The position numbers and the translations under genes were made by a program. The notes under the pieces were generated by a model. That model ran no database searches. It was not told where the DNA came from and saw nothing but the letters and a program-made list of their open reading frames with translations. DNA of 13,339 nucleotides. Origin: a virus (taxonomy: Duplodnaviria > Heunggongvirae > Uroviricota > Caudoviricetes). The DNA lies in the IMG/VR virus record IMGVR_UViG_2711768040_000006; one strand, written 5' to 3'. Positions 587 through 8,176 of this stretch are shown here, piece by piece (position 1 is the first letter of the stretch; every line of letters starts with the position of its first letter).

Positions 587-1756
587 ATGTCTTTGAAAAA
601 GTTATTACAAGATTGTGTTACGCGCGGTCAAGAAATGACCCAAGCAATTGCTATAGCTCAATTCGGTGATGATAGTCCTGAAGCTCGGCGTATCACGCGT
701 AGATGGGGGATAACTGAAGTAGCAGATTTAATTGGTGTAACTCCTCAAGCAATAAGAGATGCTGAGAAGAACGGGCGTTTACCTGCACCTGACTTTGAAA
801 TGAGAGGAAGAGTTGAACGTCGTGCCGGTTATACCATAGATCAAATCAATAGTATGCGAGCTGTTTTTGGCAACCCAAACCAACGGCCACAAGATAAAAA
901 CCCAGTTGTGCTTGCTGTTATGTCACACAAAGGCGGAGTTTATAAAACATCGTCTGCAGTACATCAGGCACAATGGCTAGCATTACAAGGTCATCGTGTT
1001 CTTTTAGTTGAAGGTAACGATCCTCAGGGAACAGCCTCCATGTATCACGGTTATGTACCTGATTTACATATACATGCCGAGGATACTTTACTGCCATTTT
1101 ACTTGGGCGAACGCGATAACGCTGAATATGCTATAAAACCAACATGCTGGCCTGGACTGGACATTATTCCTAGCTGCCTAGCTTTACACCGTATAGAAAC
1201 AGATCTCATGCAATATCATGCTCAGGGTAAATTGCCTCACCCTCCTCACCTGATGCTACGCGCAGCTATAGAATCAGTTTGGGATAACTACGATGTTATC
1301 GTTATAGATAGTGCTCCAAACCTCGGTACAGGAACCATTAACGTTGTTTGCGCAGCTGACGTTATCGTTGTTGCTACCCCTGCAGAATTATTTGATTACG
1401 CCTCTGTTCTACAGTTTTTCACAATGCTTCTCGATCTCCTAGAAAGCGTTGACCTAGGCGGATTTGAGCCGACCGTTCGCTTGCTTCTGACTAAATATAG
1501 TCTCACTACAGGAAATCAATCACGATGGATGGAAGAGCAAATAAGAAATACATGGGGATCAATGGTATTACGTCAGGTTGTACGCGTTACCGATGAAGTA
1601 GGTAAAGGTCAGATAAAAATGCGAACAGTATTTGAACAAGCGGCAAACCAGCGTTCAACACTTAATGCATGGAGAAATGCCGTCTCTATATGGGACCCTG
1701 TTTGTCGAGAAATTTTTGATGATCTAATAAAACCTCGCTGGGAGAACGAAGAATGA
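587..1756 (+). CDS. sopA: Partition ATPase SopA (ParA, type Ia, with N-terminal HTH extension)
   Basis: 389-aa ORF with deviant Walker A KGGVYKTS; extensive similarity to F-plasmid SopA as I recall it (AIAIAQF..DDSPEAR..ITRRW, VLLVEGNDPQGTASMYHG, KPTCWPGLDIIPSCLALHRIE). ATG at 587 with upstream GGAG. Confidence 0.93.
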   Translation: MSLKKLLQDCVTRGQEMTQAIAIAQFGDDSPEARRITRRWGITEVADLIGVTPQAIRDAEKNGRLPAPDFEMRGRVERRAGYTIDQINSMRAVFGNPNQRPQDKNPVVLAVMSHKGGVYKTSSAVHQAQWLALQGHRVLLVEGNDPQGTASMYHGYVPDLHIHAEDTLLPFYLGERDNAEYAIKPTCWPGLDIIPSCLALHRIETDLMQYHAQGKLPHPPHLMLRAAIESVWDNYDVIVIDSAPNLGTGTINVVCAADVIVVATPAELFDYASVLQFFTMLLDLLESVDLGGFEPTVRLLLTKYSLTTGNQSRWMEEQIRNTWGSMVLRQVVRVTDEVGKGQIKMRTVFEQAANQRSTLNAWRNAVSIWDPVCREIFDDLIKPRWENEE

Positions 1757-2742
1757 AACAACGCTCTCTTCTAAAAAATGCTCCGGATATTAATCGCATT
1801 ATGAGTAATAATCATCATGCACCTGAACATCAGCCGGTATCACCTATGGTTGGTGATTTAAAACGTCAACTGAGTTCATTAACCGGTAATAGCATAACTT
1901 TGCCAGTATGCGGACGTAATGTTAACTTTAAGTTAGAGACGATCCCCGCAGATAAAGTAGAAATGGCAACAATGGTATGGCTAGGTAATGAGCGTGATCA
2001 AGATTTATTAAATGAATCTTCTCTAGCTGATTTAATTCCATCTTTTCTAACTTCTGGGCAACAAAATCCGGCTTTCGCAAGAAAAGTGTCAGGTATTGTT
2101 GAAGTAGCTGATGGTTCTCGAAGACGTAAAGCAGCCATTATAACTGGATGCGATTATCGTGTTCTTATTGGCGATTTAGATGATGAACAAATGCAATGGT
2201 TATCGCAGATAGGCAACGACTATAGACCTATCAGCGCCTATGAAAGGGGGAAAAGATACCTGCGAAGGCTCCATGAATTTGACGGTAACGTAAAATCTTT
2301 AGCTGAAGCCGAAGGCGTGGATAGAAATATTATCAGCCGATGTATTAATACAGCCGGTTTACCTAAAGATATATTGGCAATATTTAACCATCCTGGTGAG
2401 TTATCAGCCAGAGCAGGAGACGCTCTTTTTAAAGCATATCAGGGACAGGAAGCAGCCATGAAAAATGCTGCATCTCAGTTGCTGAGGATGAAAAAATCAG
2501 GTGAAAGTTTAGATGCGCAAAGAATAATACAGGCTCTTCATGATTTCATTATTGTTGAGAAAAACAATTCACATGGAGAGAAAAGGGAAAAGAAATATGG
2601 AGACGGTGTTGTGGCGAAATATGGGAAAAATTTCACAACATTAAAATTAGATAACAGAAAAATACCATCGCACCTAATGAGTAAAATTGAATCTATTCTT
2701 GAGGAGGCGTTTGGAAATTCTTCCGATGTAAAAAATAACTAA
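1753..2742 (+). CDS. sopB: Partition centromere-binding protein SopB (ParB family)
   Basis: 329-aa ORF whose ATG overlaps the sopA stop (ATGA, translational coupling). SopB/ParB-like motifs: ITLPVCGR, WLGNERDQ, LIPSFLTSGQQNPAF, ADGSRRRKAA, HPGELSARAGDAL. Confidence 0.9.
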   Translation: MKQRSLLKNAPDINRIMSNNHHAPEHQPVSPMVGDLKRQLSSLTGNSITLPVCGRNVNFKLETIPADKVEMATMVWLGNERDQDLLNESSLADLIPSFLTSGQQNPAFARKVSGIVEVADGSRRRKAAIITGCDYRVLIGDLDDEQMQWLSQIGNDYRPISAYERGKRYLRRLHEFDGNVKSLAEAEGVDRNIISRCINTAGLPKDILAIFNHPGELSARAGDALFKAYQGQEAAMKNAASQLLRMKKSGESLDAQRIIQALHDFIIVEKNNSHGEKREKKYGDGVVAKYGKNFTTLKLDNRKIPSHLMSKIESILEEAFGNSSDVKNN

Positions 2743-2758: not shown

Positions 2759-2796
2759 AGACCCCATCAGTTATAGATGGGGTCTTAATTTTATTC
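2759..2796. terminator. Bidirectional rho-independent terminator between the convergent sopB and small membrane-protein genes
   Basis: 10-bp stem AGACCCCATC / GATGGGGTCT with a 7-nt loop, T-rich on the + side (TAATTTTATTC) and A/T-rich on the other. Could alternatively be a protein-binding inverted repeat. Confidence 0.5.
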
Positions 2797-3093
2797 AAAA
2801 AATATAAATACAAGTAAACACGCCACCACCGGCACAGCAAAATCCATCAGGCTTGCTACATCCCACGCACGCGGATCAAAACCGCCCCACCACGGCATAT
2901 TCATTCGCTTGCCATGCCCGAACATTTCAATCCAGCGATATTCTGCCTGGGTATGTTCACGCGCAATGAAGAACGTACAACCGGCTATCGCCCCGTAAGC
3001 CCAGTTTCCGGTAAAAAGACCAACCAGTACCTGCGCAGCCACAGCACAAAGTGCATGAAGGAAAGGTGTTATATCCATTTTCATCCTACCCAA
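2791..3093 (-). CDS. Hypothetical small membrane protein (two predicted hydrophobic helices)
   Basis: 100-aa ORF with two long hydrophobic stretches (FLHALCAVAAQVLVGLFTGNWAYGAIAGCTFFIA and ASLMDFAVPVVACLLVFIFFE). The track start is TTG; an internal ATG (about 3075) preceded by AGGA is the more likely start. No family recognised. Confidence 0.45.
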   Translation of the reverse strand: MGRMKMDITPFLHALCAVAAQVLVGLFTGNWAYGAIAGCTFFIAREHTQAEYRWIEMFGHGKRMNMPWWGGFDPRAWDVASLMDFAVPVVACLLVFIFFE

Positions 3094-3120: not shown

Positions 3121-4160
3121 TTATTTAGACGCAAGCGTCGCCTCAATTGCAGATAATCTTTGTTTTAATTCTGCATTTTCTTCTTCCAGTGCTGTTATTC
3201 TGTCGTCTGACTCTCTGGCTACCTGAACAAGCAAGCCAGTAACACCAGAATAATCTACTGTGTAATAACGTTCACCTTCTTCACCTTCCGATCCGCTTGC
3301 ACCGTCCTGATATTTCATTGCGGAACCTACAGCTTCTGGGATTGCTTCCAGAGCTTCCTGTGCAATGACACCAGCATAGGGCATACCGTTTTCTTTAAGC
3401 GTGTATGTATAGCCGTTCATTTTACGGATGCGGTCGGTTGCATTATCGATCACCTGAATGTTGTCTTTCAGATCCCGGTCGGAATGCTGGTTAAATGCGG
3501 TGGCATGACATGCACCATTAACGCTTAACATATAGGTGTTATCGGTATTTTTCTGCGCATAGAACATATAAGCGCCACCATCAACACCGACTTCATAAAC
3601 AACAGGACGGCTGGAGTGCCCCACAATTGAGCAGTAACACCAGCATAAGCGGTTCCCTGTGTGTTTAATGTCATGGTTGACCCATGATTGGCATATTTGA
3701 TCTGTAATGTGTCGGTGTAATCAAATTTAATAAGCGCGTTACTTCCACGCTTGCTGTATGACATAAGGCAGTTACCCATTTTGAGGTATCCGCTGTCACC
3801 GGGAAAAATCATCGTACCGCCATAAAGGTTGGTAAAGTCCCAGCAAATGTTTGTCCCGTTATCGTTCAGGTTAAGGCGCGCCATTGCGTTACCTGGACTG
3901 TCTATCCATTTTTTGAGGTATAGTTCGCAATACGCATCCTCAACACCTGCCGTCCTGTGAGTTGAGCGGAGTTTTCTCCCAAATATAGCTCCGCTAGTTG
4001 GCAATACCTGCTGATACCATGAAGCAGACCAGTCACCAACGATTTCATCTTTGCTGTCTACATATAATTTTGTTGCGTAGCTTCCTTGATCGTTTTTTAA
4101 TTTGCTAACGTCGGATTTTAGCGTTTTGATGTCATCAGGAATTACTGTCGATGTAGCCAT
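3121..4160 (-). pseudogene. Tail-fibre protein with C-terminal intramolecular chaperone (peptidase S74) domain, interrupted by a 1-nt frameshift
   Basis: Two overlapping - strand ORFs in different frames (3525..4160 and 3121..3624). The downstream one carries the S74 auto-chaperone signature HSDRDLKDNIQ..NGYTYTLKENGMPYAGVIAQEALEAIPEAV and a coiled C-terminus. Adding one G to the short G run near 3619-3622 would fuse them as ...TAQLWG-HSSRPVVYEV... (about 346 aa). Confidence 0.65.
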
Positions 4161-4169
4161 TTTTCTTCC

Positions 4170-4451
4170 TCACATCCAGCCACGAAGTTGATGCTCAACA
4201 GCAACCACGTATTCATCGAATAATGACGATATTTGCGAATCATTAATGATGCGCACGTTTACAAAATATCCGTCTTCCTTAACACATACCGGTTCGCCAT
4301 CTTCAGTCAGTTCTCCGGTTTCTTTGTACACGTTACCTATCACGTCAATAAGAATATCATCCTGCATCGACTCATCATCATAATAGCCGATACTCTCCAT
4401 AAAGGCCGAAAAGTCGGCCCTGTCGGCAAATTTGAGTGTTAAATCTTTCAT
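4170..4451 (-). CDS. Hypothetical small acidic protein (93 aa) between stf and the S74 fibre gene
   Basis: ORF with ATG at 4451. By my reconstruction its ATG overlaps the native (pre-IS2) stf stop as TAATG, suggesting translational coupling to stf. No family recognised; not lambda Tfa-like. Confidence 0.5.
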   Translation of the reverse strand: MKDLTLKFADRADFSAFMESIGYYDDESMQDDILIDVIGNVYKETGELTEDGEPVCVKEDGYFVNVRIINDSQISSLFDEYVVAVEHQLRGWM

Positions 4452-4537: not shown

Positions 4538-4548
4538 TGGATTTGCCC

Positions 4549-5454
4549 CTATATTTCCAGACACCTGTTATCACTTAACCCATTACTGGCCTGCTGCCGC
4601 AGATATTCCCGTGGCGAGCGATAACCCAGTGCACTATGCGGATGCCATTCGTTATAATGCTCGAACGCCTCTGCAAGGTTCTTTGCTGCCGTTAACCCGT
4701 CTGGTTTAGGCATGATACTGATGTAGTCACGCTTTATCGTTTTCACGAAGCTCTCTGCTATGCCGTTACTCTCCGGACTCCGCACCGCCGTGTTCTTCGG
4801 TTCAAGCCCCAACATCCGGGCAAACTGCCGTGTTTCATTAGCCCGGTAGCATGAACCATTATCCGTCAGCCACTCTACTGGAGACGCCGGAAGCTCGTTG
4901 CCGAAGCGGCGTTCCACCGCTCCCAGCATGACGTCCTGTACTGTTTCACTGTCGAAGCCGCCCGTAGTGACTGCCCAGTGCAGTGCCTCACGGTCACAGC
5001 AGTCCAGCGCGAACGTGACTCGCAGTTTTTCTCCGTTATCACAGCGGAACTCGAACCCGTCAGAGCACCATCGTTGATTGCTTTCTTTCACGGCCACTTT
5101 GCCAGTATGTGCCCGTTTCGATGGCGGTACAGCGGTTTTTCGCTCAAGCAACAGCGCATTCTGGCGCATGATCCGGTAAACACGTTTGGCATTGATCGCA
5201 GGCATACCATCAAGTTCGGCCTGTCTGCGAAGCAGCGCCCATACCCGACGATAACCATACGTGGGCAGCTCTCCGATAACATGGTGTATACGGAGAAGCA
5301 CATCCGTATCATCTGAGTGACGGCTGCGGCGACCATCTTTCCAGTCATCGGTTCGTCTGAGAATTACGTGCAACTGCGCACGCGACACCCGGAGACAACG
5401 GCTGACTAAGCTTACTCCCCATCCCCGGGCAATAAGGGCGCGTGCGCTATCCAC
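4549..5454 (-). CDS. insD: IS2 transposase OrfB (InsD, DDE integrase-like catalytic domain)
   Basis: 301-aa ORF matching IS2 InsD as I recall it ([28 protein letters not shown]...). Naturally expressed as an OrfAB fusion by -1 frameshifting. Confidence 0.9.
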
Positions 5455-5777
5455 TTTTTTGCACGCCCGTATTCAACGGCTTCTTTAAGGAGTTCATTTT
5501 CCATCGTTTTTTTGCCGAGCAGGCGCTGGAGTTCTTTAATCTGCTTCATGGCAGCAGCAAGTTCAGAGGCAGGAACGACCTGCTCTCCTGCGGCCACAGC
5601 AGTAAGACTTCCCTCCTGGTATTGCTTGCGCCAGAGAAATAACTGGCTGGCTGCCACACCGTGTTGCCGGGCAACAAGGGAGACCGTCATTCCCGGTTCA
5701 AAACTCTGCTGAACAATAGCGATCTTTTCCTGTGTAGTACGCCGTCTGCGTTTCTCCGGTCCTAAGACATCAATCAT
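5412..5777 (-). CDS. insC: IS2 OrfA (InsC, HTH DNA-binding protein)
   Basis: The track ORF 5412..5822 begins at an upstream alternative start. The canonical InsC begins at the internal ATG giving [24 protein letters not shown]... (121 aa). Confidence 0.85.
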
Positions 5778-5852
5778 CTGCTCTCCAATGACTAGTCTAA
5801 AAACTAGTATTAAGACTATCACTTATTTAAGTGATATTGGTTGTCTGGAGAT

Positions 5853-8165
5853 TCAGGGGGCCAGTCTAGACCCTGCTGTAGTCTGGCCTCCAATACGGAT
5901 GGTTGCAGAGTTCTGAATATAGGACCACGTAGTCTTTTTTTCGCTGGATATGCGCCCGTTACTTACTGAGCACGTAGACTGATCTGATTTTACACGCATC
6001 CCCATAACCATTTTTTCAAGCGATGCGTTTTCGTTTACCCGTCTGTTAGCTCCTCCAATATCGCAATAAGGAAATCCGTCTGGCCCATCTGCCGCGGATC
6101 CGAACCCAAGAATAATAGCCGCTCCGGTTTGATGACCGCCGGTATCAAAAACACGCGGCGCTGCATTTGGCGTTTTATACCAGTTCTTATGTACCTCACA
6201 AAGAACCGTAAAAGGAAGATTATAAAGATTATTCTTAATGGGAACTGTAACTATATCGCTTGCGCGGGTCGCCGCCGTCGTTCCTGATATAATAAAAGAT
6301 GATACACAAGGCCCATTTTCTACTTGTGGGGTGGCCAGATAAATATAGTCACCAGATACGGTTGCCCCGCCCTGCTTAGGAGAATACTGTATCTGAGAAC
6401 CTATTTTTAACTCCCCATCAATTGCCTGAATTGTTGCCTCTGCAAAAATCCATCCGGTAGCTTCGTCCTTTCTGACTCTCGCTGTAATCCTTGAGGCAGC
6501 ACCGCCTGTCATATTAATTTCAAGCGTTTGTGTATCAATATACGCATCACCAAGAAAAGTTGTTGCGCTACCGTCATATTTATCAAACCGGATACGCAAC
6601 CTTACCTGCAGTTCTGTTTTAAAACGACATGAGGTTGTCACGTATTTATTATAGCCTGAGACATCAACTGACTTTGTTGCAGCAATTGATGCCATATTAA
6701 TGGCTGAGGTTTGCCCAATCAGAGAATCGTTACAGACGAACTTTCCATAGGTAAAACCAAAACTATCCTTCCCGGTTTCGGGAACATCCATATTTGACGA
6801 TCGCCCCCAACTGGCAGGGTTTTCCGAATTGAGCATGTAGTTTGTTCTTTGCCCCTCAATAAGCAGGCCATCACGTTCAAATCGTGGCTCGTCAATGGCA
6901 GCCTCTGTCAGCACACCAGATTTGTTAATATAGGTTGCTTTCGATGCACGTTTAAACTTAACAATCTTGTCGCCAGGCATCGTTATTTCATCGTCACCAA
7001 TAACAATTTTTTTATATGACGGCGAAAAGCCCGTAATCATATCCAGCGAATCGTTAAATGGTATCCACACATCAGGCAGCGGCTGTAAGACATATTTATA
7101 CGGCTCCGCAGCCTGGCTTGCGTACTCTCTGGCTGCATCTTCGCTTGCTTTAGCTGCCGTCTGGCTTGCTGCCGATGCTTTCGCTGAGTTCGCAGCCGCT
7201 GTTTCGCTCACCTTTGCGTTGGTTTCACTGGTTTTTGCTGCTTTTTGACTGTTAGCTGATGCAGTGGCAGAAGCAGCCGCCGCGCTTGCAGAACTGGCTG
7301 CGGCACTCTCGCTTTGAGCCGCTGCATCCTGACTGCTTTTCGCCGCAGTTTCACTGGCTTTGGCATTCGTTTCGCTGGTCTTCGCTGCCGTCTGGCTGGA
7401 CTTTGCGTTAGTTTCACTCGTCTTCGCAGCTTTCTGGCTGTTAGCCGCAGCAGTTGCTGATCCAGCTGCTGAAGTCGCAGAACCGGCTGCCGCGCTCTCG
7501 CTTTGGGCTGCTGCAACCTGGCTGTTTTTTGCCGCAGTTTCACTGGCTTTAGCATTCGTTTCGCTGGTTTTCGCTGCCGTCTGGCTGGACTTTGCGTTGG
7601 TTTCGCTCGTCTTTGCGGCTGTCTCACTGTTTTTCGCGTTGGTTTCTGATTTTTTGGCTGCTGTCGCGGAGTTTGCCGATGCAGTCTGTGAGGCCGCTGC
7701 TGCCTGTGCGCTGTTAGCTGCATTCGTTTCTGAGGTTTTCGCCGCGTTCTTCGATGATGCCGCTGCGGTTTCGGATTTCTTTGCCGCCGCTGCGCTCTGA
7801 GAGGCGGCTTCGGCGTTGCGTGCCGCTTCTTCCACCATTTCCTCAAAACGACGCAATGCCTCCGGCATGACATCATCTTCCGTCATGGCACCGAGAAAAT
7901 CATTCAGCGTACCTGGTCTGGAACCTTCATAGACGGTAATGGTTCCGGCATGTGAAGGCGGAAAACCTTCAACAAGCAGGATAACGCTGTACTGGCCATA
8001 CTCAACATCCATGCTGTAACGCCCGGCTTCATCCGGATTTTCAGAGGCCACCGTGTTCACCAGTACCGTGGTGCTGTTACGCTTTGCCTTCAGTTGAATA
8101 GTGCAGTTCTGTATTGGTTTTCCCGCACCATCTTTCAGCACACCTGAGATTTTTACTGCTGCCAT
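5853..8165 (-). CDS. stf: Side tail fibre protein Stf (lambda Stf-like N-terminal domain, long Ala/Ser/Thr/Lys repeat shaft, distinct C-terminal domain); 3' end replaced by IS2 sequence
   Basis: N-terminus MAVKISGVLKDG.GKP.QNCTIQLKA.RNSTTV.VNTV.SENPDEAGRYSMDVEYGQYSVIL matches lambda Stf as I recall it. ATG at 8165 with GGAG 5 nt upstream (track ORF starts at GTG 8171). The reading frame runs into IS2 and stops at 5853 inside the element (...TTAGSRLAP*), so the native last ~26 codons are lost. Confidence 0.85.
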   Translation of the reverse strand: MAAVKISGVLKDGAGKPIQNCTIQLKAKRNSTTVLVNTVASENPDEAGRYSMDVEYGQYSVILLVEGFPPSHAGTITVYEGSRPGTLNDFLGAMTEDDVMPEALRRFEEMVEEAARNAEAASQSAAAAKKSETAAASSKNAAKTSETNAANSAQAAAASQTASANSATAAKKSETNAKNSETAAKTSETNAKSSQTAAKTSETNAKASETAAKNSQVAAAQSESAAAGSATSAAGSATAAANSQKAAKTSETNAKSSQTAAKTSETNAKASETAAKSSQDAAAQSESAAASSASAAAASATASANSQKAAKTSETNAKVSETAAANSAKASAASQTAAKASEDAAREYASQAAEPYKYVLQPLPDVWIPFNDSLDMITGFSPSYKKIVIGDDEITMPGDKIVKFKRASKATYINKSGVLTEAAIDEPRFERDGLLIEGQRTNYMLNSENPASWGRSSNMDVPETGKDSFGFTYGKFVCNDSLIGQTSAINMASIAATKSVDVSGYNKYVTTSCRFKTELQVRLRIRFDKYDGSATTFLGDAYIDTQTLEINMTGGAASRITARVRKDEATGWIFAEATIQAIDGELKIGSQIQYSPKQGGATVSGDYIYLATPQVENGPCVSSFIISGTTAATRASDIVTVPIKNNLYNLPFTVLCEVHKNWYKTPNAAPRVFDTGGHQTGAAIILGFGSAADGPDGFPYCDIGGANRRVNENASLEKMVMGMRVKSDQSTCSVSNGRISSEKKTTWSYIQNSATIRIGGQTTAGSRLAP
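5869..5873. repeat. Target-site duplication GACCC (IS2, left flank copy)
   Basis: Second copy of the 5-bp direct repeat flanking IS2; coordinates +/-1. Confidence 0.6.
7140..7800 (-). repeat. Intragenic tandem repeats in the stf shaft region (about 180-bp units; protein repeats of the AAKTSETNAKxSxTAAK type)
   Basis: Near-identical DNA segments recur (e.g. about 7330-7470 vs 7510-7650). The translation shows two ~60-aa near-duplicate blocks plus many shorter SETNAK iterations. Confidence 0.7.
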
Positions 8166-8176
8166 ATCCACTCCAC

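Follow-up and report, generated by a model that had tools for sequence, protein, structure and literature searches.

A single-nucleotide deletion has probably inactivated an accessory tail-fibre gene with an S74 chaperone in an N15-like plasmid prophage

The S74 domain is an intramolecular chaperone that promotes trimerisation and the folding of the sequence N-terminal to it, and is then released by self-cleavage via a Ser/Lys dyad (PMC3742443). The closest described systems to the protein considered here are the S74 chaperones of endosialidase tailspikes and long fibres, such as endoNF of phage K1F and gp37 of phage S16 (PDB 6f45), with which it shares the PF13884 domain, the Ser-x4-Lys dyad and the C-terminal position of the domain, which is followed by a long helix. 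It differs from both in that its body is very short (~226 aa) and without a solved homologue, and in that the domain is, in the DNA analysed, uncoupled from the body by a frameshift. Frameshifts in accessory fibre genes are themselves familiar from lambda PaPa, in which a frameshift in stf, relative to Ur-lambda, abolished the side fibres and left plaque counts unchanged (Hendrix and Duda 1992, as cited in PMC12617516), and the same account has lambda without side fibres continuing to infect via the central fibre, J (PMC12617516). The lesion described below is also a frameshift, and it too affects an accessory side fibre of a lambdoid phage, but the gene concerned is a 346-aa fibre with an S74 chaperone that lies downstream of stf, the allele comes from a natural isolate and from metagenome data rather than from a laboratory stock, and stf has here been damaged separately, by an insertion sequence (IS). 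The same fibre gene is present in intact form in phage Tritos. This phage is prophage 3 of E. coli LF82 and was isolated as a plaque-forming siphovirus (PMC9928086). Both the gene family and the kind of lesion are already known.

The gene lies in a 13,339-nt virus contig (IMG/VR record IMGVR_UViG_2711768040_000006; Caudoviricetes), which is referred to throughout as the window and the features of which are collected in Table 1. An exact-protein look-up showed it to be contig CXXD01000035.1 of assembly GCA_001269005.1 in its full length. The contig starts with a perfect palindrome of 129+129 nt (positions 1-258) centred on an N15-type telRL core (TATCAGCACATAATTTCCCATTATACGCG/CGCGTATAATGGGAAATTATGTGCTGATA). 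In p19KM1803_4, a complete relative that encodes a protelomerase, the palindrome is limited to ~54 nt and the sequence on the far side is a different one. Positions 1-129 of the window would hence be explained by an assembly that continued around a covalently closed hairpin telomere. The N15 features seen in the window are the palindrome, sopAB and the lambda-like tail genes; the protelomerase was seen only in p19KM1803_4, and the window ends at the telomere. Judged from its sequence, the contig probably corresponds to the hairpin-telomere end of a linear plasmid prophage that is N15-like. As a whole, it has its closest relative in E. coli YDC107, where the gene order is the same, both stf and the 346-aa fibre gene are intact and the IS is absent. 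At the fibre gene the two share only 91.6% identity, and so the module appears to be mosaic. The YDC107 sequence itself (NZ_CP025707.1, 301-12303), an N15-like sopAB/tail-fibre/J segment with a telomere palindrome, lies close to the beginning of a record that is described as a chromosome, and may be an integrated or mis-joined phage-plasmid.

Table 1. Features of the window (nt positions counted from its first base)
Feature	Position	Strand	Remarks
Partition genes sopA (389 aa) and sopB-like (329 aa)	587-2742	+	Adjoin the tail-fibre module, as in N15-type phage-plasmids
Small conserved ORF, phrog_1443	2791-3093	-	~97 aa; downstream of fibre gene
Accessory tail-fibre gene of the 346-aa type, frameshifted (putatively pseudogenised)	3121-4160	-	1040 nt here, 1041 nt when intact
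Downstream frame	3121-3624	-	167 aa; native residues 182-346
Peptidase_S74 (intramolecular chaperone)	3328-3483	-	Pfam PF13884, E = 1.3e-14, 54.6 bits (cut-off 22)
Upstream ORF	3525-4160	-	211 aa, ATG start; native residues 1-181 and 30 out-of-frame residues (TPAVLLFMKSVLMVALICSMRRKIPITPIC)
Deletion site	3616-3618	-	C-A-C here, C-A-A-C when intact; codon 182, AAC (Asn)
G4 run named in the sequence-only reading	3619-3622	-	Same as in intact copies
ORF of 93 aa, phrog_1361	4170-4451	-	Between stf and fibre gene in relatives
IS3-family IS, IS2-like	4538-5868	-	1331 bp; 5-bp target duplication GGGTC; in 3' end of stf
IS orfB	4549-5454	-	Pfam rve
IS orfA	5412-5822	-	Pfam HTH_Tnp_1
stf (side tail fibre), cut by IS	5853-8171	-	Last 25 native residues replaced by SRLAP

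The fibre gene is present in the window as a pair of minus-strand ORFs, and across 3121-4160 the plus strand contains no ORF of at least 50 aa. In comparisons with the PHROGs profiles, the upstream ORF corresponded to positions 1-182 and the downstream ORF to positions 181-346 of one and the same 346-position profile, phrog_4563 'tail fiber protein' (E = 1e-104 and E = 8e-109, respectively), and because these matches are consecutive the two ORFs can be recognised as the two halves of one known gene. Going by these profile matches, the pair is far beyond what a chance juxtaposition would give. The ORFs overlap by 100 nt in different frames, and the GTG at 3624 is the start of the downstream frame in a mechanical sense only, with no Shine-Dalgarno sequence visible by eye just upstream of it. 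The downstream frame gives the Pfam match to the S74 domain and carries the motif HSDRDLK with its Ser-x4-Lys pair (S227, codon 3481-3483; K232, codon 3466-3468), both residues of which are nearly invariant in an alignment of 18 family members, and no Pfam match was obtained with the upstream ORF. A sequence-only reading of the same DNA had proposed that a 1-nt frameshift splits a single fibre gene here, with an S74 intramolecular chaperone at its C-terminus and the HSDRDLK chaperone signature in the downstream ORF, and this is what the phrog_4563 halves, the PF13884 match and the Ser-x4-Lys dyad support; the overlap of about 100 nt between different frames that it had described was borne out. 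The result matters mainly for annotation, in which the two ORFs should be joined and marked as a single frameshifted tail-fibre pseudogene.

Intact homologues are abundant. In megablast searches of complete E. coli genomes and of phage records, near-identical copies numbered in the hundreds, the best matches spanning one base more than the query, and in E. coli TUM14771 (WP_001523194.1, named 'tail fiber domain-containing protein' in RefSeq) and phage Tritos (TRITO_21) the gene is annotated as a single 1041-nt CDS of 346 aa; the fibre gene matches phrog_4563 over its full length. A protein search with the upstream ORF yielded 47 cluster representatives, one cluster alone having 2132 member sequences, and most of the representatives that are not partial are ~346 aa in length (range 342-366), with PF13884 at the C-terminus and 57-96% identity to the query. 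Across the site of the frameshift, the residues L179-W-G-N-S-S-R-P186 are invariant or nearly so in an alignment of 18 representatives. At IMG/VR loci with full-length copies, 31 of 35 are intact and two more have a stop in place of the last codon, which makes 33 of the 35 effectively intact, while the other two are disrupted at other sites, one by a change of A6 to A7 (L004) and one by a cluster of insertions. Shortened versions are also on record, as phrog_19752 is a family of ~207 aa that corresponds to the N-terminal part of the fibre gene only and a further protein of this kind, 177 aa long (P0005), is encoded on a 2-Mb contig. Truncated copies of the fibre therefore appear to have been annotated elsewhere as independent proteins.

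The nature of the lesion was defined by alignment with the TUM14771 and Tritos copies, in which the intact homologues have TGGGGCAACTCC where the window has TGGGGCACTCC. Two bases 3' of the G run the intact copies have an AA dinucleotide, of which the window retains a single A (position 3617), and the loss of the other converts GGGGCAAC to GGGGCAC. The sequence-only reading had placed the lesion at the short G run, but the G4 is unchanged relative to the intact copies and it is the A near 3617 that is missing. Its statement that the addition of one G near 3619-3622 fuses the two ORFs cleanly is correct only as frame arithmetic, as a 1-nt insertion at any point in 3528-3720 will fuse them, and the added G would give N182H at a nearly invariant residue. 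As it stands the window copy is one nucleotide short, and once the A is restored it is the same gene as WP_001523194.1, TRITO_21 and phrog_4563 (100% identical), with 1041 of 1041 nt matching the gene of TUM14771. This complete identity indicates that there has been no further decay and hence that the event was recent. Very probably, an accessory fibre gene has recently been inactivated here by the loss of one A from codon 182 (AAC to AC), and a genuine inactivating mutation, which was among the options offered by the sequence-only reading, is supported by the ancestral AA, by the single-gene relatives and by the recurrence of the allele.

Other explanations of the two-ORF arrangement can be weighed against this one. 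If the ORFs were normally separate genes, the upstream one would specify the fibre body and the downstream one a chaperone acting in trans, and the 207-aa phrog_19752, which covers the N-terminal part only, together with some short database entries, might be taken to point this way. The likelihood of this is close to nil, given that all complete relatives, with 57-96% identity to the query, have one ORF that includes PF13884, that RefSeq and phage annotations show a single 1041-nt CDS, and that the short entries are mostly labelled partial or are located on very short contigs; where the earlier reading had allowed that homologues might turn out to have two separate genes, those compared have a single gene. 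It is also extremely improbable that expression of the full-length fibre is switched or tuned at the G run, be it by slippage or by programmed frameshifting. G4 and A5 runs, and only these, are present inside the 193-nt region where a -1 shift could rescue the frame, yet a shift at either of them would replace conserved residues, and no X_XXY_YYZ heptamer was found in 3528-3720. In addition, G4 is the ancestral length, being that found in functional or intact genes, with no change in the length of the run among 450 E. coli genome records, 35 full-length IMG/VR copies and 18 diverse family members, and the two-frame layout is conserved in no relative examined, the relatives having one frame. 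The expression switch that had been suggested is thus unsupported, and annotations should not present the G run as a candidate for phase variation.

A sequencing or assembly error, by which the real DNA would have AA and an intact gene, is unlikely in our view, even if several observations are in its favour. When 81 nt spanning the site were used as a query, 450 complete-genome records matched, none of them at 99% identity and with a one-base gap in the best matches listed, and by this measure the deletion is present in no complete E. coli genome among the 450 matching records. Exact-pattern scans for the deletion allele found none in GTDB representative genomes, IMG/VR or JGI metagenomes, and the intact pattern had an exact match in 39 viral contigs. 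Outside the gap the gene does not differ from intact copies (100% identity), and evident assembly indels are seen in other database copies, such as the A6 to A7 change in L004 and several in pF16EC0211-3. However, the base was lost from a 2-nt run, which is not a homopolymer, and the exact-protein look-up retrieved the identical 211-aa product, complete with its 30-residue out-of-frame tail, from the ENA metagenome contigs ERZ28617501 (901 nt) and ERZ27242373 (845 nt), where alignment showed the same A to be missing. The same indel is therefore found in three independent assemblies, the window and the two metagenomes, which makes a one-off sequencing error unlikely, and J, lom, sopA, sopB and the 93-aa ORF on the 13.3-kb contig all match the lengths annotated in relatives. 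With the indel lying outside any homopolymer, recurring in two metagenome assemblies and having neighbours of normal length, the homopolymer sequencing error that had been put forward as an option is weakened, and the deletion of an A from codon 182 is the preferred reading. One of the ENA contigs has four differences from the window in the first 18 upstream bases, which suggests that it derives from a different genetic background. Both of these short contigs stop at the identical base inside the chaperone-coding region, and this shared end probably reflects a branching of the assembly graph owing to the highly conserved 3' end of S74 that prophage fibre genes have in common. CP088430.1 was considered as a second case of the same deletion, as its match was equal in length to the query, and was rejected on account of several indels elsewhere.

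What the deletion would mean for the fibre can be predicted from the organisation of the intact protein. In intact homologues a single polypeptide contains the body and, C-terminal to it, the S74 domain, and the two are separated in the window. The intact protein would comprise an N-terminal body of ~226 aa followed by the S74 chaperone (residues 227-346) with its Ser227/Lys232 dyad, and by analogy with the endosialidases the chaperone would drive trimerisation and folding of the body and then cleave itself off. A PDB sequence search gave a sole match, the chaperone-bearing tail-fibre tip 6f45 (E = 9e-4), with SSDRRIKKDI in the position of HSDRDLKDNI. Longer fibres, of 1210 aa and 1567 aa (phrog_6578, phrog_5668), match the protein with their C-terminal ends, over its residues 132-343 and 92-337, respectively, and it can hence be viewed as a stand-alone distal fibre module with an N-terminal region of ~90-130 aa of its own. 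In an AlphaFold2 model of the protein based on an 18-sequence alignment (mean pLDDT 37, pTM 0.24), only the C-terminal helix 305-345 is confident, and the domain boundaries used here are those given by sequence alone. The deletion would uncouple the body from the chaperone. The upstream product, with its 181 native and 30 aberrant residues, would be without the last 45 residues of the body as well as the whole chaperone, and would hence not be expected to fold into a fibre; for the chaperone part, no translation start of its own is evident. As S74 is described as intramolecular, the chaperone is taken not to act in trans, and a literature search provided no usable statement on an S74 chaperone that does so. 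It is predicted that the 346-aa fibre is lost from this allele, and from this we infer loss of function.

A second lesion affects the neighbouring stf gene, which is intact (790-792 aa) in Tritos and YDC107. The element that interrupts it, which we take to be IS2 from its length and ends, has overlapping transposase ORFs, imperfect terminal inverted repeats and an A6G motif in the orfA/orfB overlap, and identical copies are annotated in RefSeq as IS3 family transposase. The plasmid p13TMH22-2 was considered as sharing the same insertion, and this was rejected since the identical IS is elsewhere in stf and the fibre gene is a different one. Given the different position of the insertion, stf appears to have been struck independently by this IS in p13TMH22-2. 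The latter (NZ_CP019258.1, 5285-6513) is a related sopAB-bearing phage-plasmid in which the IS is 100% identical and which also contains a second, frameshifted copy of sopA.

With two independent lesions in the side-fibre module, the particles released by this element would probably be without functional side fibres. From the precedent of lambda, the loss of side fibres should not prevent infection, and loss of the fibre would be tolerated because infection by lambda-like phages depends on J and because the element is maintained as a plasmid. Damage to both accessory fibre genes in a plasmid-capable element would fit relaxed selection on virion genes, and the deletion would then be a further example of how an accessory receptor-binding gene decays once its prophage is resident. 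It is very unlikely that selection maintains the deletion allele in a plasmid-prophage lineage, such that its presence in three datasets reflects spread and not a neutral accident; if this were so, the lysogen or the phage might profit from the loss of both side fibres or from the 211-aa fragment itself, for instance because the phage would adsorb less to debris of its own host.

The 346-aa fibre gene is flanked, in the relatives examined, by the phrog_1443 and phrog_1361 ORFs. No Pfam match was obtained for either of the corresponding ORFs in the window, the products of which could be partners in the assembly or attachment of the fibre.
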